This document shows, piece by piece, positions 1 to 7,948 of a DNA stretch of 8,047 bases (its first letter is position 1; each line of letters begins with the position of its first letter). The stretch is taken from the IMG/VR virus record IMGVR_UViG_2609459846_000016, one strand, 5' to 3'. The position numbers were made by a program, and so were the translations under genes. The DNA comes from a virus. Taxonomy: Duplodnaviria > Heunggongvirae > Uroviricota > Caudoviricetes. The notes beneath the pieces were generated by a model. The model did not search any database. It worked only from the letters and a program-made list of their open reading frames with translations, and was not told the DNA's origin.

Positions 1-1
1 A

Positions 2-214
2 CTGACCAATCAGCTGGTGCAGACGGTAAGGGGGTATATCCGCGAATGCCTGCAATGGATGATTGATGACGGTGTGGTGTCCCGTATTGATCTGGATATC
101 CGCCGCACCGGGATTAATGAACTGGGTAACAGTATCACTCTCTGGCGACGTGACGGACCGGTAATGATTTCTTTTGATAATCTGTGGAGTGCGATAACGC
201 ATGGCGGACAGTGA
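2..214 (+). CDS. Phage baseplate protein, 3' end only (gene continues upstream of the window); probably the gp46/GPW-like wedge subunit that precedes gp47 in Mu-like tail modules
   Basis: Frame is open from the first base of the window to TGA at 212-214; the track shows only the last 65 aa (from an internal GTG at 17). It is co-oriented with the downstream baseplate J-like gene, whose ATG at 201 overlaps it by 14 nt. Identity is inferred from gene order only; I do not recognise motifs in the 70 visible residues. Confidence 0.45.
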   Translation: MTNQLVQTVRGYIRECLQWMIDDGVVSRIDLDIRRTGINELGNSITLWRRDGPVMISFDNLWSAITHGGQ

Positions 215-1283
215 ATTTCAGCGCCCGACGCTGGCAGAAAATATCAGTATGCTCCGTAACGATTTATTCGCCAGGCTGGACGTCAGTGACCCACTCCGGC
301 GCATGGATGAAGACGTGCGGGCAAAGGTGTATGCGGCGGCGCTGCATACGGTTTACGGTTACATCGATTATCTGGCAATGAACATACTGCCTGACCGGTG
401 TGATGAATCCTGGCTGGCGCGACATGCTGCGATGAAACGGTGTCCGCGCAAGGGGGCCACGGCTGCCAGCGGGTATATGCGCTGGGAAGATGTCAGCGAT
501 GACCTGAAGGTGACCGCCGGGAGTGTTATTCAGCGCGATGACCTGGTTCAGTACACAGCAACTGCCGATGCAACCAGCTCCAGTGGTGTCCTGCGCGTGC
601 CGATCGCCTGCTCAACTGCAGGTGCGGTCGGTAATGCTGACGACGGTACGGCATTAATCCTGGTCACGCCGGTGAATGGTCTGCCGTCGTCTGGTGTGGC
701 TGATACCCTGACCGGCGGATTCGATACTGAAGATCTGGAAACGTGGCGCGCCCGCGTCATTGAGCGGTATTACTGGACGCCTCAGGGCGGGGCTGACGGG
801 GATTATGTCGTCTGGGCTAAAGAAGTGCCTGGTATTACGCGCGCATGGACATACCGTCACTGGAGAGGAATAGGAACGGTAGGGGTGATGGTGGCGACAA
901 ACGATCCGGAACATCCGGCTCCGGATGAAAGCGTCATTAATGCAGTCAGAGAGCACATTCTTCCTCTGACACCGGTTGCCGGAAGCGGATTGTATGTATT
1001 CGGTGCCACAGAAAAAGTCATCCCGATGACGATTGCATTATCGAAAGACACACCGCAGATCAGGACTGCAATAAAAGCAGAGCTGAATGCACTGATGTTA
1101 CGGGATGGTGTGCCAGAGGGGCGTATGTATCTGTCCAGAATCAGTGAGGCCATCAGTTTGTCTGCTGGTGAAGTGGCCCACCGGTTAATCGTCCCTTCAT
1201 CGGATATTGACCTGGGGGAGACCGAGCTTCCGGTGCTCGGCGAGATCACCTGGCAGGCTTATGACCCGGCAAGGAGTAAATAA
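201..1283 (+). CDS. Baseplate J / gp47-family baseplate assembly protein
   Basis: 360-aa ORF. The N-terminal region (MADSEFQRPTLAEN...VYGYIDYLAMNILPD...) matches the pattern I recall for Mu gp47 / P2 gpJ-type proteins. Its TAA stop (1281-1283) overlaps the next ATG (1283) as TAATG. GC is roughly 50-55 percent, like the other baseplate genes. Confidence 0.8.
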   Translation: MADSEFQRPTLAENISMLRNDLFARLDVSDPLRRMDEDVRAKVYAAALHTVYGYIDYLAMNILPDRCDESWLARHAAMKRCPRKGATAASGYMRWEDVSDDLKVTAGSVIQRDDLVQYTATADATSSSGVLRVPIACSTAGAVGNADDGTALILVTPVNGLPSSGVADTLTGGFDTEDLETWRARVIERYYWTPQGGADGDYVVWAKEVPGITRAWTYRHWRGIGTVGVMVATNDPEHPAPDESVINAVREHILPLTPVAGSGLYVFGATEKVIPMTIALSKDTPQIRTAIKAELNALMLRDGVPEGRMYLSRISEAISLSAGEVAHRLIVPSSDIDLGETELPVLGEITWQAYDPARSK

Positions 1284-2242
1284 TGGATTCGTTACAGGAT
1301 GATTATAAAAAGCTGCTGTACGGACTGATGCCGCCGGGGCCTGCATGGAGCGATACCGACGGCGTGCTTGATGGTCTGGCACCATCGCTTGTACGTGTTC
1401 ATCAGCGGGCTGATGAACTGATGGCTGAAATCGATCCTGGTCAGTCAACAGAGCTGATTGAACGTTATGAAGAATTGTATGGTTTACCTGACACCTGCTC
1501 TCCTGTTGGAGCCCAGACATTACGCCAGCGTCAGCAACGGCTGGAAGCAAAAGCCAATGTGGCTGGTGGCATAAATGAGCAGTTCTTCCTGGAGCAGCTT
1601 GAGGCGCTGGGATATACCGGCGTGACGATCGAACAGTTCCAGCACCTGGATGCAAGCCCCGATCCGGAATGGGGTGATCGCTGGCGTTATTTCTGGCGTG
1701 TGACGTTGCCGGTGGATGCCGGTGCTCAGTGGCAGACATGTTCGGACACCTGTAACACACCGATCCGGACGTGGGGTGATACGGTTGCGGAATGCGTGAT
1801 TAATAAATTATGTCCGTCGCATACTGTTGTCCTTTTTGCATATCCGGATGAGTCTGGTGAAGTGCAACAAGCCGCCCTGACTATAAACAGCCTCTCCTTT
1901 CAGGCCGGACACAAGACGACTGAGCCATTAGCGATTAATCATACAGGTGTTCATTTTGCGGTTGTTCCGGCACTGACAGGTAAGCCGCTGACAATTAACC
2001 GGATTAACTTTTATGCCGCCCGTCCGATGGCAGAGCCACTGGTACTCAGCAGGGCGCAATTGCACTCAGGTCTGCCGACAACGGACCCCATGACCATGAA
2101 CAGCGCACAGTTGCAGACGGGATACAGGACCCGCTCCCCCGTACCAGTTAACAGTATGCAGTTGCAGACAGCCAGCAGACCCCGTGAACCGTTATTGATT
2201 AATCACCCGGGACTGCATTTTGCTGTGGTCACGTCCGAATGA
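1283..2242 (+). CDS. DUF2313/YmfQ-like phage tail protein (Mu gp48 / P2 gpI position) with a ~125-aa repeat-containing C-terminal extension
   Basis: 319-aa ORF with AAGGAG at 1271-1276, 6 nt before the ATG. N-terminal residues 1 to ~190 (LLYGLMPPGPAW ... ELIERYEELYGLPD ...) resemble YmfQ-type proteins, which I recall as ~190-200 aa. Residues ~195-319 carry internal repeats: EPLAINHTGVHFAVV and EPLLINHPGLHFAVV, and four copies of an xTxNSxQLQ-type unit. The matching DNA-level direct repeats are visible at about 1921-1975 and 2183-2240. Confidence 0.75.
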   Translation: MDSLQDDYKKLLYGLMPPGPAWSDTDGVLDGLAPSLVRVHQRADELMAEIDPGQSTELIERYEELYGLPDTCSPVGAQTLRQRQQRLEAKANVAGGINEQFFLEQLEALGYTGVTIEQFQHLDASPDPEWGDRWRYFWRVTLPVDAGAQWQTCSDTCNTPIRTWGDTVAECVINKLCPSHTVVLFAYPDESGEVQQAALTINSLSFQAGHKTTEPLAINHTGVHFAVVPALTGKPLTINRINFYAARPMAEPLVLSRAQLHSGLPTTDPMTMNSAQLQTGYRTRSPVPVNSMQLQTASRPREPLLINHPGLHFAVVTSE

Positions 2243-2265
2243 CATAAAATAAAAGGAGAGCCGCT

Positions 2266-3315
2266 TTGAATATTATTAAACTCGAAAGTTTTCGACAAAT
2301 TCCGGCGAATGAGGGATTGTGCGAGAACTATTATTCAACAAATATTATTTCAGCACTGAACGAAAACGGTGTCACGCTTATCAATGATATGTCCGGTTCT
2401 GTAACATCCGTCTGTCGTGGCACTCAGGCCGTAAATACTGTAGAAAGAACGGGGCTGATTTTTACGACACCCTCATATGTCACACTGTACAGCACACTTC
2501 CGGACTTAAAAGCCTCAGCTGTACAGCTGGGATTTCGTCTGACATTAAGTGCGGGAAAGAAATATTCATCTTCGCCATCCCACATCAGGATTAATGGCTA
2601 TTCATTTACAACCCCGTATCCTGATGAAGCAGCCAGTTATTACTATGAAATTTTCGCAACGCGAAACGAAAACGGCTATGTCTCAGCCAGTCTGTACTGC
2701 AACCGCTCATTAGTTGGAAATGCATCGTTTTATGTATCAGATGACCGGACTGACAAAATTCAGGTGAGTATTGGTAGTGGTGACAATATTTTTTCATCGG
2801 GTGCATCCGGCACGTTAATGCTGGGTGATATGTACTGTGGAACAGTGACATACGGTAGAAATAATAGTGCAGAACCCGCCCTGCTCGGAAGCATTGAGGT
2901 CAGATACAGCCCGGTAACGGCATTTACCGGTGGAAGCGCCAAAAACTCACTGAATAAAGATATTGTCACGGGGCTGAACACCTCTGACAGCGAGGCCGGA
3001 TATCTGATGCTCTCGCCCTCCCTGAATGCAGCACAGGCCACGTTTGGTGCGGTGGATAACAGCAACAGTGATGTTGTGGCTGTTATGGCCTCGGTCACTT
3101 ACCGCGGTGCTGATGCCCCCAATAACCGCCTGGCCTGGAAAGTGAAAAATGGCAGCCATGCAGGCGCAACGATTACAGAGAATGGCGTACAAAGCGACAC
3201 AAACAGCTGGACGACTGTCTCACAGAGTTTTATGGCCCAGCCAGGCGGAGAAACGCCTTTCACAAAGGGTGAACTGACTTTCACAGCGGAATTGTTTAAT
3301 CAGGCAAGGACATAA
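2266..3315 (+). CDS. Hypothetical protein, 349 aa, Ser/Thr/Asn/Gly/Tyr-rich; probable tail-associated or receptor-binding accessory protein, or a horizontally acquired cargo gene
   Basis: Long ORF starting at TTG 2266 with AGGAG at 2254-2258 (7-nt spacer). It sits 23 nt after the DUF2313 gene and 30 nt before the fibre gene, on the same strand. GC is visibly lower (about 40-45 percent) than the baseplate genes. No hydrophobic N-terminus or transmembrane stretch; composition suggests a beta-rich protein. I recognise no family. Confidence 0.6.
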   Translation: MNIIKLESFRQIPANEGLCENYYSTNIISALNENGVTLINDMSGSVTSVCRGTQAVNTVERTGLIFTTPSYVTLYSTLPDLKASAVQLGFRLTLSAGKKYSSSPSHIRINGYSFTTPYPDEAASYYYEIFATRNENGYVSASLYCNRSLVGNASFYVSDDRTDKIQVSIGSGDNIFSSGASGTLMLGDMYCGTVTYGRNNSAEPALLGSIEVRYSPVTAFTGGSAKNSLNKDIVTGLNTSDSEAGYLMLSPSLNAAQATFGAVDNSNSDVVAVMASVTYRGADAPNNRLAWKVKNGSHAGATITENGVQSDTNSWTTVSQSFMAQPGGETPFTKGELTFTAELFNQART

Positions 3316-3345
3316 TTCTGATATTTCATTCACGGGAGGTTTAAT

Positions 3346-4455
3346 ATGCACAGAATTGACACTCCGACAGCAGTTAAAGATAAATTTGGCCCGGGCAAGA
3401 ACGGATTTACTGACGGGAATATTCGTACAGGGCGTCATGCCACCTGGCTGAACAGTGCCATGTGGGATGCCCTTCAGGAGGAAATCTGTGGTGTCATTGA
3501 GAAGGCCGGGATAGAACTGAATAAAGAGGAACACGACCAGTTATATAAAGCCATATTATTACTGGTGGGCGGTGCAATTAACGAAGAGGCATTGCTGATA
3601 AAAAATAATCTTTCGGATGTCGAAGACAGTGATGAGGCTGTTGAAAACCTCGGATTAAAACCCACGGTGGATAAGGCAAAAAATGCCGTTCAGCGTGATG
3701 GAGACACCATGACCGGGGAGCTGAAAATCAGTGGTGTTAATGCACTGAGGATTTTCAACGAAGCCTTTGGTCTGATTTTTCGTCGTTCGGAAGAGTGTCT
3801 GCACCTCATTCCTACCCGGGAAAATCAGGGCGAGAGTGGTGATATTGGGCCGCTACGCCCCTTTACGCTTAATCTCAGGACCGGTCGCATAACTATGGGA
3901 CACGGTCTGGATGTTACAGAAGATGTATTTGCAGGCCGTTTAGCGATTAACAGCAGTAACGGAACGTGGATTCAGATGCGTGACAACAACGTTATTTTCG
4001 GGAAAAACAGGATAAATACTGATGCTGCTCAGGCGCTTCTGCGTCAGGATCATGCAGACAGAAAGTATTTCCTGGCTGGTCTTGGGAATAAGCAGTTTGG
4101 CATTTACATGATAAATAATAGCCGTACGGATAATGGTACGGACGGTCAGGCGTATATGGATGATGCGGGAAACTGGCGATGCGGGCGTCAGGTTATACCG
4201 TCAGACTACGGAAACTTCGATGCCCGCTACCAGACCAAAACAGGTGGCGTACAGAATTTTCAGTATACCAGTGAGGTGTTTTACAACCCGGGCGGGAACG
4301 AGCACAGCTGGACGTTTCGAGCACCTTCTGGTTGTGTTTTGTCAGGCATTAATGTTCAGGATACTGGCCGTAACTCTGCAGACAATATCGGTGGCGTGTA
4401 TTACAAACAGGCTCAGATTTATATTAATGGTGCATGGCGATCTGTATCAGGTTAA
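3346..4455 (+). CDS. Phage tail fibre protein (Mu S / P2 gpH-like)
   Basis: 369-aa ORF with GGGAGG at 3334-3339 before the ATG. Motifs shared with tail fibres as I recall them: ALLIKNNLSD, ENLGLKPTV...NAVQRDGDTMTGELKI (compare P2 H LGLQETVNRAGNAVQKNGDTLSGGL) and a C-terminal ...IYINGAWRSV. The ENLGL motif at 3641-3667 is the usual constant/variable junction. Confidence 0.85.
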   Translation: MHRIDTPTAVKDKFGPGKNGFTDGNIRTGRHATWLNSAMWDALQEEICGVIEKAGIELNKEEHDQLYKAILLLVGGAINEEALLIKNNLSDVEDSDEAVENLGLKPTVDKAKNAVQRDGDTMTGELKISGVNALRIFNEAFGLIFRRSEECLHLIPTRENQGESGDIGPLRPFTLNLRTGRITMGHGLDVTEDVFAGRLAINSSNGTWIQMRDNNVIFGKNRINTDAAQALLRQDHADRKYFLAGLGNKQFGIYMINNSRTDNGTDGQAYMDDAGNWRCGRQVIPSDYGNFDARYQTKTGGVQNFQYTSEVFYNPGGNEHSWTFRAPSGCVLSGINVQDTGRNSADNIGGVYYKQAQIYINGAWRSVSG

Positions 4456-4469
4456 TTAAGGAGAAAATA

Positions 4470-5000
4470 ATGGAACTCTCAAACATTACGCGTTACTACC
4501 CTGAAGACATGCCTTATGGTGACGGCATTCAGTATTTCCGTAGTGAAGACGGGCAGGATTTTTATGAATCACTGGATAAATTCACGAAGAAATACAAGCT
4601 GTGCACGCATCCTGAAACCGGCGTTATTTATTCCGTGGCGGAAGATGTATCCCGTCTTTATCCCGTTGGTTTTACCATTGTGGAAGTGGATGAACTACCG
4701 GATGGTTTTTGTATAGAGGCGCGCTGGTATTATAAAGACGGTGAAGTACTACCGGTCCCTGTTGATTACAGGCAGCAGGCAGAGTCGGAGCGTGCACGTC
4801 TTACTGCGATTGCTGAACGGGAAATATCCGATAAGAAGACGGATTTACTTTTGGGAATCATCGGTGATGAAGAAAAAGAAAAGCTGACAGTCTGGCGCAT
4901 TTACGCGAAATTGCTGCAGGCGATGGATTTCAGCACCATCACTGATAAAACCTCATATAACGCCATTGAATGGCCCGTCTCTCCGGAAGCCTCTTCCTGA
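4470..5000 (+). CDS. Tail fibre assembly protein (Tfa / Mu U / P2 gpG-like chaperone)
   Basis: 176 aa. ATG at 4470 is preceded by AGGAG at 4459-4463 and lies 14 nt after the fibre stop. The C-terminus (...KLTVWRIYAKLLQAMDFSTITDKTSYNAIEWPVSP) matches the conserved Tfa C-terminus, for example lambda Tfa ...APDIEWPAVP as I recall. The track start at 4434 overlaps the fibre gene and has no RBS, so 4470 is preferred. Confidence 0.85.
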   Translation: MELSNITRYYPEDMPYGDGIQYFRSEDGQDFYESLDKFTKKYKLCTHPETGVIYSVAEDVSRLYPVGFTIVEVDELPDGFCIEARWYYKDGEVLPVPVDYRQQAESERARLTAIAEREISDKKTDLLLGIIGDEEKEKLTVWRIYAKLLQAMDFSTITDKTSYNAIEWPVSPEASS

Positions 5001-5089
5001 TTTAATTTATCGCGAGAAAAATTATGTCTGTAGTGATATCAGGTGCGCTGACAGATGGCGCAGGCGCAGGTCGATCGCAATGACGAGAT

Positions 5090-5360
5090 TTATCGCCGTA
5101 GGAGGGAGATGAAGGAAGAACTGAGCAGTCTGGGGGATTTGAAGTCGATTAGGAATTTTATAGTGGAATAACAGAAGCCGCGGCACGTCGTATGCAAGAA
5201 CGCACCGCGGCAGGCACCAATATTTTTTGTGAAGGTATCTTTTCCCGGAATATCTGCGCCGTTCTGGTTTTTCTGTAATGCGCCAGAAGCCTGATTTACC
5301 GTTTCCTGTAAACCGAGGTTTTTGAGAATTGCCTCCGTGTCGTCTGAACGATATTTTTTC
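5090..5360 (-). pseudogene. Truncated remnant of an alternative tail-fibre segment (S'-like) in inverted orientation
   Basis: Minus-strand translation of about 5212-5360 gives KKYRSDDTEAILKNLGLQETVNQASGALQKNQNGADIPGKDTFTKNIGA, paralogous to the + strand fibre residues SDEAVENLGLKPTVDKAKNAVQRDGDTMTG. The frame then runs into non-fibre-like sequence and stops at 5090. There is no room for the rest of a fibre or a second assembly gene. The track ORF 5090..5467 starts inside the IS terminal repeats, so its first ~40 codons are not fibre-derived. Confidence 0.4.
5303..5328. other. Gin/Hin/Pin/Cin-family DNA-invertase crossover site (gix/hix-like)
   Basis: TTCCTGTAAACCGAGGTTTTTGAGAA is an imperfect palindrome about a central GA. 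It differs at 2 of 26 positions from the Mu gix sequence as I remember it (TTCCTGTAAACCGAGGTTTTGGATAA). On the minus strand it encodes N-L-G-L-Q-E, the fibre junction motif. Confidence 0.6.
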
Positions 5361-5409
5361 CCGCTTTCAGCAACAATCGCGGGCCAGAAAGTATGCAATA
5401 TAGTTATGT

Positions 5410-5542
5410 GCAAAATGGCATCTGAATCGATCGCAGTTTGGCATTCGAATCGATCATGATTTGGCATTCATCTCCGATCACAGTTTGGCATCACAATCGA
5501 TCACGATTTGGCATGCTTCCGATCATTGATTGGCATCCTGCC
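5410..5542. repeat. Left terminal multi-repeat array of the IS (5 tandem ~23-bp units plus a partial sixth)
   Basis: CGATC anchors at 5428, 5451, 5476, 5498 and 5520 (spacing 22-25 bp), each followed by (A/G)TTTGGCAT; a partial unit AAAATGGCATC lies at 5412-5422. Confidence 0.7.
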
Positions 5543-5610
5543 AGTCACTCCGGGAATTAACTCTTTTCACCACAGTCTCCATTGCCGTGTTTAAACCAGT
5601 GGAGACGTCA

Positions 5611-7176
5611 ATGTCCAGAAAGAGAAAATCCAGGAGCACTATGGAAACCTGTTTTAAGATCCTTCAGCTCAAGTTCGACAAGAAGCTGACTAACCGTTGT
5701 ATCGGACTGACGTTACACATCAGCGCCTCAACCGTTTTTGAGGTTCTTGCCCGCTTCAAAGCCTCTTCTCTGTCATGGCCATTACCTGCTGATATATCCC
5801 ATGACACGCTGGAGAAACTCATTTTTCCGCCCAAAGACACCTTTGCATCAGAGCTTGTAATGCCTGACATGTTGTACTTCGATACGGAAATGAGAAAACC
5901 AGGTGTGACGCGGCAACTGTTGTGGATGGAATACAAGGCACAGGCGGGTGACAAAGCGATGGGATACTCGCACTTCTGCCGTTGCTACCGGGAGTGGAAA
6001 AAAACGCGACGTCTCTCCATGCGCCAGGAGCATCGTGCCGGCGAAAAGCTTTTTATCGACTTCTGTGGTCCTACGGTTCCTGTTATTAATCCGGACACCG
6101 GTGAGATACGCCGCGTGGCAATCTTCGTGGCCGTAATGGGGGCGTCCAACTATACCTACGTTGAAGCGTGCGAAGGTCAGGACATGATGTCATGGTTAAA
6201 TGCCCACAGCCGTTGCCTGACCTTCCTGGGCGGCGTACCGAAGCTGCTCATCCCCGATAACCTCAGAAGCGCAGTGAAAAAGGCCGATCGCTATGAGCCT
6301 GTCATCAACGACAGTTATCAGGCACTGGCTGAGCACTATGGCACGGTTATCATCCCGGCCCGACCACGCAAACCTAAAGATAAACCAAAAGCAGAAAACG
6401 GCGTCCTCATCGTCGAACGATGGCTTCTTGCCCGCATCCGTAATGAAACCTTCCACACGCTCAGGGCGCTGAATGCGCGCCTTAGGGAGTTACTGACAGA
6501 CATGAATAACCGGCCAATGAAGGGGTACGGCAATCAAACCCGTGCAGAACGCTTCCGCATACTGGATGCGCCAGCACTCTCTCCGCTGCCTCTGGCACCT
6601 TATGAATACACGGAATACAAAGCTGTGAAGGTTGGCCCTGACTACCACGTTGAATATGCCCGTCACTGGTACTCCGTTCCACACGAACTGGTCGGTCAGC
6701 GTCTGTCACTGAAGGCGGGGCAGTCGGTGGTACAGCTCTGGCACAAGGGGCAGTGTGTGGCGCAACATCCGCGCAGCACACATGAATATAAACACACAAC
6801 CAATCCGCTTCACATGCCAGAGCGCCACCGGCAGCACGGGACATGGACACCGGAACGCCTGATCGAGCAGGGAAAACGTACGGGCCCGTCCACAGGCCGG
6901 GTGGTTGAATCCATGCTGAAGGCAAAACCCCATCCGGAACTGGCTTATCGTGCAGTTCTGGGGCTGCTGGCACTTCAGAAAAAATACGGCCCGGAACGGC
7001 TGGAAAAGGCCTGTTACGTTGCCCTGCACTATAACGCCCCTGACAGACGCTTTATCGACAATCTGCTGCGTCACCATCGGGAGAACCTGGAGCTTCCATT
7101 ATCCCGCCAGGGCGAACAACATCCGGCATATGCTTCAGAGCATGAAAACCTGCGTGGTCCGGGCTACTACCACTGA
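5611..7176 (+). CDS. istA: IS21-family transposase IstA (N-terminal HTH plus DDE integrase core)
   Basis: 521 aa from ATG 5611 (GGAGA at 5601-5605). Motifs typical of IstA: FIDFCGP, FVAVMGASNYTYVE, FLGGVPKLLIPDN, KPKAENGV. The track start at 5530 is a TTG inside the terminal repeats and is rejected. An alternative ATG at 5641 also has an AGGAG 4 nt upstream. Confidence 0.9.
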   Translation: MSRKRKSRSTMETCFKILQLKFDKKLTNRCIGLTLHISASTVFEVLARFKASSLSWPLPADISHDTLEKLIFPPKDTFASELVMPDMLYFDTEMRKPGVTRQLLWMEYKAQAGDKAMGYSHFCRCYREWKKTRRLSMRQEHRAGEKLFIDFCGPTVPVINPDTGEIRRVAIFVAVMGASNYTYVEACEGQDMMSWLNAHSRCLTFLGGVPKLLIPDNLRSAVKKADRYEPVINDSYQALAEHYGTVIIPARPRKPKDKPKAENGVLIVERWLLARIRNETFHTLRALNARLRELLTDMNNRPMKGYGNQTRAERFRILDAPALSPLPLAPYEYTEYKAVKVGPDYHVEYARHWYSVPHELVGQRLSLKAGQSVVQLWHKGQCVAQHPRSTHEYKHTTNPLHMPERHRQHGTWTPERLIEQGKRTGPSTGRVVESMLKAKPHPELAYRAVLGLLALQKKYGPERLEKACYVALHYNAPDRRFIDNLLRHHRENLELPLSRQGEQHPAYASEHENLRGPGYYH

Positions 7177-7192
7177 CAGAAGGAACAACAGT

Positions 7193-7948
7193 ATGAGTGA
7201 TAACCTGTTAAACAAACTGACCCAACTGAAACTCCCGGCGATGGCCGGGAGCCTGATACGGCAGCGGGAAACGCCTCAGACCTACGACGAACTGTCGTTC
7301 GAGGAAAGGCTGACGCTGCTGGTTGATGACGAGCTTCTGAGCAGGGAAAACAGCCGTGTGGCACGGTTGAGAAAAAATGCCGGCCTGAAATACCAGGCAA
7401 CACCGGAAGGGCTGCGCTATCCGGCCTCAAGAGGTCTGCGGGCTGAACAGATGAGAGAACTGCTGAACGGCCACTACATAACCCACAGGAAAAACCTGCT
7501 GATAACCGGTCCGACAGGATGTGGCAAGAGCTGGATAGCCAATGCACTGGGCGAACAGGCATGTCGACAGAAACACAGCGTCCGGTACTGTAGAACCGGG
7601 CGATTACTGGAACAACTGGCTCAGGGACGTGTTGATGGCAGCTGGCTGAAATATCTGAAACAGTTGCAAAAAATACAGGTTCTAATCCTGGACGATCTGG
7701 GGCTGGAACAGTTAAGTAACGCCCAGTGTAATGACCTTCTGGAGCTCATAGAGGATCGTTACGGACAAAGCAGCACGATAGTGGTAAGTCAGTTCCCGGT
7801 AGATAAATGGCATGGTCTGATGGAGAACCCAACAACAGCAGATGCCATCCTGGACAGACTGGTACATAACTCACACCGGGTGGTCCTTCAGGGAGAGTCA
7901 CTGAGGAAAAATCCCCCGGTAGTGGAAAGCAGCGAAAAAACGCGTTAA
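7193..7948 (+). CDS. istB: IS21-family helper ATPase IstB (DnaC-like AAA+)
   Basis: 251 aa from ATG 7193, 16 nt after the istA stop. Walker A GPTGCGKS and Walker B VLILDDLG are present. The track ORF begins at 6950, overlapping istA; 7193 is preferred. Confidence 0.9.
   Translation: MSDNLLNKLTQLKLPAMAGSLIRQRETPQTYDELSFEERLTLLVDDELLSRENSRVARLRKNAGLKYQATPEGLRYPASRGLRAEQMRELLNGHYITHRKNLLITGPTGCGKSWIANALGEQACRQKHSVRYCRTGRLLEQLAQGRVDGSWLKYLKQLQKIQVLILDDLGLEQLSNAQCNDLLELIEDRYGQSSTIVVSQFPVDKWHGLMENPTTADAILDRLVHNSHRVVLQGESLRKNPPVVESSEKTR

Follow-up and report, generated by a model that had tools for sequence, protein, structure and literature searches.

The gp48 gene and its C-terminal extension

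We analysed an 8,047-nt stretch of viral DNA (IMG/VR record IMGVR_UViG_2609459846_000016; hereafter the window), which covers the distal tail region of a myovirus prophage of Escherichia coli; its baseplate is of the Mu type, and its YmfQ protein resembles that of e14. This report concerns its gp48/YmfQ gene, whose product continues beyond the family domain into a repetitive C-terminal tail, and the gene of a 349-amino acid (aa) protein, which begins 23 nt after the gp48 stop codon. All features of the window are listed in Table 1.

The gp48 gene starts at 1283 directly after gp47 (201–1283), the position expected in a Mu-type baseplate. Residues 13–187 of its product matched PF10076 (Phage_Mu_Gp48) with 88 bits, where the gathering score is 37.4; phrog_203 matched residues 1–205 with an E-value of 1.8e-73. 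A first-pass annotation, made from the letters alone, had placed a YmfQ-like domain up to about residue 190 and some 125 residues beyond it. Both statements held: the open reading frame (ORF) encodes 319 aa, the last ~125 of which have no family match. Thus, the core is an ordinary member of the PF10076/DUF2313/YmfQ family, and the tail is an addition to it. PF10076 proteins are single-domain and ~190–200 aa long, a description that the 319-aa window protein does not fit. Almost all of 119 gp48 homologues had 192–197 aa rather than ~320 aa, and the tail was carried by only four clusters among them (P0002-4, P0051). Six other long homologues (P0008, P0010, P0012, P0049, P0113, P0115) were considered as alternative extensions and set aside as fusions, frameshifted products, or possible assembly artefacts. 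In simple baseplates, the gp48-type protein is a peripheral wedge subunit and the attachment point of the fibres (PMC11821841), and according to earlier work summarised in PMC11821841, it is present in six copies per baseplate rather than as a trimer.

The extension is a tandem array of short repeats

Seven units, arranged in a single tandem array, make up the entire tail; they start at aa 197, 214, 234, 251, 268, 285, and 302 and have lengths of 17, 20, 17, 17, 17, 17, and 18 aa, giving a period of 17 with a single 20-aa unit. It had first been described as two long and four short repeats. The long pair was confirmed: the peptides EPLAINHTGVHFAVV and EPLLINHPGLHFAVV have 12 of 15 residues in common, and a DNA direct repeat is present (1921–1965 vs 2185–2229, 45 nt, 73% identical). 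As a description of the tail, however, it was incomplete, and a single seven-unit array takes its place. The lag-17 BLOSUM autocorrelation of the tail had a z of 8.3, which was reached by none of 2000 shuffles. Tandem Repeats Finder detected no tandem repeat at the DNA level, which means that the repeat is kept as protein and not as DNA.

Across all family members, the consensus of the internal units is E-P-L-[TV]-[IV]-N-[RS]-A-Q-L-Q-[ST]-G-[HY]-x-[TS]-x, with conserved positions P2, L3, N6, L10, Q11, and G13. The final unit differs from these and forms a cap, E-P-L-x-I-N-[HR]-x-G-L-[HS]-F-A-V-V, and the signature P-L-x-[IV]-N-[HR]-x-G-L-x-F-A-V closes the compared arrays with some substitutions. 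Units 1 and 2 of the window (aa 197–233) aligned to the last two units (positions 52–85) of a hidden Markov model (HMM) of the array built only from other lineages, with an E-value of 5e-13. Judged from the sequence, the window tail is laid out as (unit + cap) + PALTG + (four units + cap), a layout that explains the long repeat noticed first. The same layout is kept in two unrelated types of gp48 (types B and D, described below), although their arrays are by now only about 50% identical, and it is therefore no recent accident.

Searches of the tail against Pfam (E<=10), PHROGs, PDB (phmmer and profile searches), and INPHARED phages (tblastn) gave nothing meaningful, and neither the array nor the 349-aa family was described in the literature searched. 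The array appears to be a tandem peptide repeat that is new in sequence. We define the family by at least three tandem E-P-L-x-[IV]-N-x-x-x-L-Q-x-G units and a terminal cap PLx[IV]Nxx(G)LxFAV, and the window tail fits this definition. An AlphaFold2 (AF2) model of full-length gp48 was poor, with a predicted local distance difference test score (pLDDT) of 53.7; residues 189–319 were entirely below 50, and short strand pairs or hairpins were modelled in only a few units. Such low confidence would fit a tail that folds only on a partner or within the assembly.

Cassette boundaries, selection, and annotation

The nearest short form of gp48 is a 196-aa protein (P0005, locus L050) that is 93% identical and ends in ...SYPDEDEDAQD. 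By blastn, window 677–1852 matched L050 5395–6570 with 88% DNA identity, the match ending at ...TATCCGGATGAG, and window 3336–3885, about the first 180 codons of the tail fibre gene, matched L050 6568–7117 with 92.5% DNA identity. Because these flanking blocks adjoin in L050, the sequence between gp48 codon ~190 and the fibre start is a clean indel. The fibre N-terminus MHRIDTxTAVKDKF... is common to the window and L050, which has no array. Since the same fibre follows gp48 at both loci, fibre attachment is independent of the array. At another locus, L002, the array opens a new homology block (93.7% DNA identity from window ~1899 on), and the gp48 core there is only 25% identical.

We estimated the ratio of nonsynonymous to synonymous substitution rates (dN/dS) against relatives at 76–83% tail identity. 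It was 0.36–0.48 for the tail, 0.06–0.13 for the core, and 0.17–0.36 for the 349-aa gene, which indicates purifying selection on the tail, though relaxed. The array is therefore not a dead fragment. One suggestion of the first-pass annotation, that the extension is a fused fragment of another gene, is thus right to the extent that the module is shared and portable and wrong if a dead fragment was meant.

The public annotation takes a different view. Window 1283–2265 corresponds to 15001–15983 of locus L001, a genome identical to the window over this region, in which PGAP/RefSeq calls gp48 a pseudogene ('YmfQ family protein, incomplete, missing C-terminus') that ends at aa 195; the array (L001 15586–15983) is left unannotated. 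RefSeq/PGAP shortens the gp48 gene to such a 195-aa 'pseudogene' in most E. coli genomes. Under this view the extension would be a recombination scar, which might also account for AF2 finding no fold in the tail. Against it, the frame is open in all relatives, with neither a stop nor a frameshift in the tail of any relative examined, close ones included; dN/dS is below 0.5; length changes come in whole units; and the module is kept on four gp48 types and on side-tail-fibre anchors, even where identity falls to about 35%. PGAP, moreover, accepts the 324-aa orthologue of L002 as intact (WP_229315494.1, from a different prophage), although its architecture is the same, so that the annotation is inconsistent. 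We regard the pseudogene explanation as already largely refuted and extremely unlikely.

Distribution of the array on other anchor proteins

An exhaustive HMMER search with the 125-aa tail as a single query against 1.84 billion representative proteins matched only seven proteins. The distant ones, whose matches were confined to tail residues 38–125, were three N-terminal anchors of lambdoid side tail fibres (Stf-N; PF08400; P0122, P0124, P0125) and P0123, another type of gp48 with an immunoglobulin-like insert. All four end in the array and cap. In detail, array-bearing gp48 proteins fell into types A (window, L004, L007), B (L002), C (L011, L020, L038-40), and D (L029), and array-bearing Stf-N anchors were found at L010, L016, L018, L021, L031, and L046-49 as well as in P0122, P0124, and P0125. 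Since the cassette of array and partner gene occurs on four unrelated gp48 cores as well as on the anchors of lambdoid side fibres, it behaves like a connector that can be carried from one protein to another. Such a connector would be useful for engineering the host range of phages or tailocins.

The number of units is 3–7 and varies among close relatives. In type C (L038, L039, L040, L011), close relatives differ by whole units, five vs six. L040 has three near-identical EPLVINRVMLQSGR(T/M)TQ copies, which points to recent unequal recombination within the array.

It should be mentioned that several Mu-like or P2-like myovirus prophages carry PF08400 genes after the fibre gene and the tail fibre assembly gene (tfa): L018 (4391–6113), L050 (8358–9293), L002 (8810–9148), and L016 (~4030–6149). 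Those of L018 and L016 end in the array and are followed by the lectin-like partner, and the L050 gene has another module at its end, with ORFs of 100 aa and 195 aa after it. Such genes imply second fibre sets on simple baseplates. A 'mom' annotation at one hit (H70) was rejected as homology, since it lies at a deletion junction in a decayed prophage.

Coupling of the array to the 349-aa protein family

In about 37 loci examined, every gene of the 349-aa family clustered with an array-bearing gene, nearly always 1–33 nt 3' of it; the exceptions were two permuted orders and one degenerate case. A profile scan of IMG/VR and GTDB with the family gave 29 loci, 28 of them usable. An array-terminated ORF ended 22–30 nt upstream of the 349-family gene in 26 of the 28, and the remaining two had the order gp48-D(array)-fibre-Tfa-349, in which the array-bearing gp48 lies two genes upstream. 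Nine further loci, examined individually, showed the same coupling as the scan. Proteins of 349–354 aa without a Pfam match also lie downstream of P0123 and P0124. The family comprises 27 clusters from E. coli and Raoultella, all labelled 'hypothetical'.

The identities of arrays and partners were correlated (Mantel r = 0.61; 4/5000 permutations). At L010, the first ~30 nt of the 349-aa gene (1260–1290 vs window 2266–2296) has five clustered substitutions (K5N and S8G plus synonymous changes), and the gene is otherwise 99.8% identical to that of the window. We read this as a recombination breakpoint that lies some 9 codons into the partner gene, so that the partner passes on its N-terminal strand together with the array and cap that precede it. 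K5N and S8G were also considered as covariation with the cap type, but the clustering of the changes, synonymous ones included, pointed to the breakpoint instead. Taken together, the extension is very likely a selected module that is coupled to the 349-aa gene.

Could the target of the array instead be the tail fibre encoded downstream, or Tfa? Genes for a fibre and a Tfa-like protein do follow the 349-aa gene in the window, L002, L004, L010, L011, and L020. On the other hand, the fibre start of the window also follows the array-less 196-aa gp48, and fibre N-termini differ among loci, whereas the pairing of the array with the 349-aa protein is constant. At L018 and L016, moreover, the anchor with its array and the partner (370 and 382 aa, respectively) stand after a complete fibre and Tfa set, which at L018 includes a normal 194-aa gp48, and nothing fibre-like lies downstream. 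The constant companion of the array is therefore the 349-aa family and not the fibre, and binding to the fibre or Tfa is very unlikely.

A further alternative is a fibrous spacer or shaft, that is, a stalk like a beta-spiral or beta-helix. The 349-aa protein would then sit elsewhere, on the fibre, gp47, or the gp48 core, and the coupling would reflect co-inheritance of a cassette. Variation of the unit number between 3 and 7 is as expected for a spacer, and arrays and partners can be shuffled. The triple beta-spiral of adenovirus fibre and reovirus sigma1 consists of tandem units of 15–17 aa with a Pro-Leu start and alternating hydrophobic residues, and the unit motif xPLx[IV]xxxxLxx is loosely like the adenovirus shaft repeats, a resemblance that the comparisons did not support. 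We rejected an adenovirus-shaft identity, as comparison with an Ad5 shaft sequence by hhalign gave a probability of 0.7% and there was no match to Pfam Adeno_shaft or, at E<=10, to PDB. Moreover, the protein ends at the cap, so that a shaft would carry nothing, and the partner stays next to the array on anchors that otherwise share nothing. The array is present both on monomeric gp48, which in contrast to the adenovirus and reovirus proteins is not a trimer, and on presumably trimeric Stf-N; this favours independent single chains over an obligate homotrimeric shaft. We consider the spacer unlikely.

Predicted fold of the 349-aa protein

The 349-aa gene has its own strong Shine-Dalgarno sequence and TTG start, and an in-frame TAA at 2245–2247 lies upstream of that start. 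A translational fusion or frameshift from gp48 into the 349-aa frame was rejected on these grounds. An AF2 model from a 25-sequence alignment had a pLDDT of 91.3 and a predicted template modelling score of 0.89, and predicted an all-beta protein of two domains with the jelly-roll beta-sandwich typical of the concanavalin A (ConA)-like lectin/glucanase superfamily. A Foldseek search against PDB agreed with this fold, the matches including legume lectins and the binding domain of botulinum neurotoxin. Full-length structural matches (template modelling score 0.6–0.66) were proteins of ~350 aa from phages of Achromobacter, Serratia, Providencia, and Cronobacter; the best is named a virion structural protein and most others are uncharacterised.

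The ConA-like superfamily, with legume lectins, PL7/PL14/PL36 alginate lyases, CBM4/22, and sialidase lectin domains, is thus the comparison group for the 349-aa protein, although sequence identity to it is only 6–13% and no Pfam match was found at E<=10. The whole two-domain protein was matched only by the uncharacterised phage virion proteins. The N-terminal strand of the partner, MNIIxLEGFRQIPA (MNIIKLESFRQIPA), is strongly conserved.

Proposed docking function

The first-pass annotation had suggested that the extension might serve to dock the adjacent 349-aa protein or act as an adaptor for it. Comparative genomics favours this reading through the cassette indel, the portability on unrelated anchors, and the lectin-like fold predicted for the partner. 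On balance, we think it probable that the extension physically docks the 349-aa protein. From these comparisons we infer physical binding, its contact site and stoichiometry, and glycan binding with its specificity.

We propose that the array is a portable C-terminal docking module made of ~17-residue beta-hairpin-like units and a conserved amphipathic cap strand (PLxINxxGLxFAV). It would be fused to a protein fixed in the tail, namely the gp48 wedge here and the N-terminal anchor of lambdoid side tail fibres elsewhere, and would hold the product of the next gene, the 349-aa lectin-like virion protein, non-covalently. The phage would thereby gain a putative accessory glycan-binding protein per wedge, beyond the ordinary fibre on the gp48 core. 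The array and partner gene would move as one cassette by recombination, and the unit number would shift by unequal recombination and probably set reach or valency. The cap strand (L-x-F-A-V) would most likely make contact with the conserved strand at the N-terminus of the partner.

Several observations weigh against docking. L014, which has the most distant partner (40% identity), has only a free 64-aa ORF before the partner, with about two degenerate units (LPLVIKHAVVSVGH..LPVLTGRTWLTYLIQN; HMM E-value 1e-4 in a tiny database). This lambdoid prophage, in which an 88-aa ORF follows the partner, may hold a split or decayed module. Gene adjacency, the Mantel correlation, and the L010 breakpoint can all stem from linkage alone. 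Near-identical partners (89–99%) pair with arrays that are only 34–49% identical (L010, L021, L029), which implies either recognition by the motif pattern or no contact. The partner is conserved over its full length and lacks a hypervariable tip, an unusual feature in a receptor-binding protein, and the low AF2 confidence of the tail could be plain disorder.

A variant of docking is a multivalent strip like a scaffoldin, in which the lectin-like protein would bind by beta-strand addition to every 17-aa unit, one copy per unit, and copy number would set valency. In its favour, internal units keep a conserved motif, copy number varies among close relatives, and two cap-like units are retained in gp48 types A, B, and D. 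However, no other unit is as distinct or as conserved as the cap, which hints at a single site; a site of 17 residues would also be small for a ligand of 349 aa, and neighbouring copies would clash. We consider such a strip quite unlikely. If it were true, up to seven glycan-binding heads could sit on one wedge protein with avidity tuned by unequal recombination, and the array would be a universal plug-and-play connector for host-range engineering on both myovirus gp48 and siphovirus-type Stf anchors.

Comparison with known systems

Residues 1–190 of the window protein are a bona fide member of the group of Mu gp48, P2 gpI, and e14 YmfQ, placed after gp47 with a fibre and Tfa downstream. Proteins of this group typically have 192–197 aa, whereas the window adds the 125-aa array and an extra downstream gene. 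The means by which simple Mu/P2-type baseplates accommodate fibres beyond their six standard ones has been noted as an open question of structure (PMC11821841). The locus points to one concrete answer, a sequence-novel peptide array grafted on the wedge protein that appears to recruit a lectin-like protein.

In T4 gp7-gp10-gp12 and in gp10-like adaptors (the tailspike proteins of CBA120; gp63.1/gp66 of G7C), an added module tethers a separately encoded host-binding protein and so provides more than one binding specificity. By their genomic coupling, the array and the 349-aa protein would follow the same logic. The gp10-like adaptors are folded domains with trimeric tailspikes as cargo, whereas the window has a short tandem peptide repeat and a lectin-like cargo of ~350 aa; the window tail has no similarity to them in Pfam, PHROG, or PDB searches and is unfolded in the AF2 model. 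Modular attachment of accessory host-binding proteins is thus already known, and it is the putative docking repeat itself that appears novel by its sequence.

In classical lambdoid Stf, a single long chain includes the distal receptor-binding part, and Tfa serves as its chaperone. In contrast, the Stf-N (PF08400) proteins P0122, P0124, and P0125 and those of L016 and L018 end in the same array and are followed by the partner family, so that the distal part is a separate lectin-like protein.

Neighbouring genes and prophage context

Table 1. Features of the window and array-bearing genes at four other loci
Locus	Feature	Position	Strand	Remarks
Window	gp47 / Baseplate_J wedge protein	201–1283	+	PF04865, E 1e-53; phrog_6
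Window	gp48/YmfQ gene	1283–2242	+	319 aa including repeat tail
Window	gp48/YmfQ core domain, aa 1–190	1283–1852	+	Homologous to 196-aa short forms
Window	Accessory cassette, 1,483-bp indel	1853–3335	+	blastn vs L050: array segment, 23-nt gap, 349-aa gene
Window	Repeat unit 1, AALTINSLSFQAGHKTT	1871–1921, aa 197–213	+	
Window	Repeat unit 2, EPLAINHTGVHFAVVPALTG	1922–1981, aa 214–233	+	Cap-like, with PALTG linker
Window	Repeat units 3–6	1982–2185, aa 234–301	+	17 aa each; internal units of canonical 5-unit array
Window	Terminal cap unit, EPLLINHPGLHFAVVTSE	2186–2242, aa 302–319	+	With TGA stop
Window	Shine-Dalgarno AAGGAG and TTG start of 349-aa gene	2253–2268	+	Read from sequence
Window	349-aa protein gene	2266–3315	+	phrog_8291; no Pfam match
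Window	Tail fibre	3346–4455	+	phrog_6859
Window	Tail fibre assembly protein (Tfa)	4470–5000	+	PF02413; PGAP coordinates in L001
Window	Inverted tail-fibre C-terminal fragment	5090–5467	-	PGAP 'phage tail protein, partial'
Window	IS21-family element	5411 to window end (8047)		IstA-like 548-aa ORF 5530–7176; IstB-like ORF 6950–7948
L020	Anchor gp48, 259 aa			Array of 3 units
L018	Anchor Stf-N, 202 aa			Array of 3 units
L016	Anchor uncalled Stf-N ORF			Array of 5 units
L014	Free 64-aa ORF	4794–4988		About two degenerate units (weak)

Window 1–5410 is 100% identical to E. coli E203449 (L001), where the prophage lies beside potB and the complete upstream head-tail cluster, including full gp44-gp48, is annotated; identity stops at 5410. 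Array DNA was present in 59 of 5426 complete E. coli genomes (about 1%), and the listed carriers are mostly isolates from human hosts (e.g. ETEC6, B7A, and the JNE O166:H15 strains). Strain TD225-C4 is a carrier as well.

The start of Tfa is ambiguous. The mechanical ORF begins at the ATG at 4434 and overlaps the fibre stop at 4455, and PGAP and homologues place the start at MELSNITRYY, window 4470. A partial DUF4376/Tfa fragment on the plus strand lies 3' of Tfa, in the same 5055–5467 region as the inverted fibre fragment. These fragments look like remnants of an invertible host-range segment of the Mu G type; no invertase is present within the window. The left end of the IS21-family insertion sequence has multiple GATC..TTTGGCAT terminal repeats, typical of IS21.

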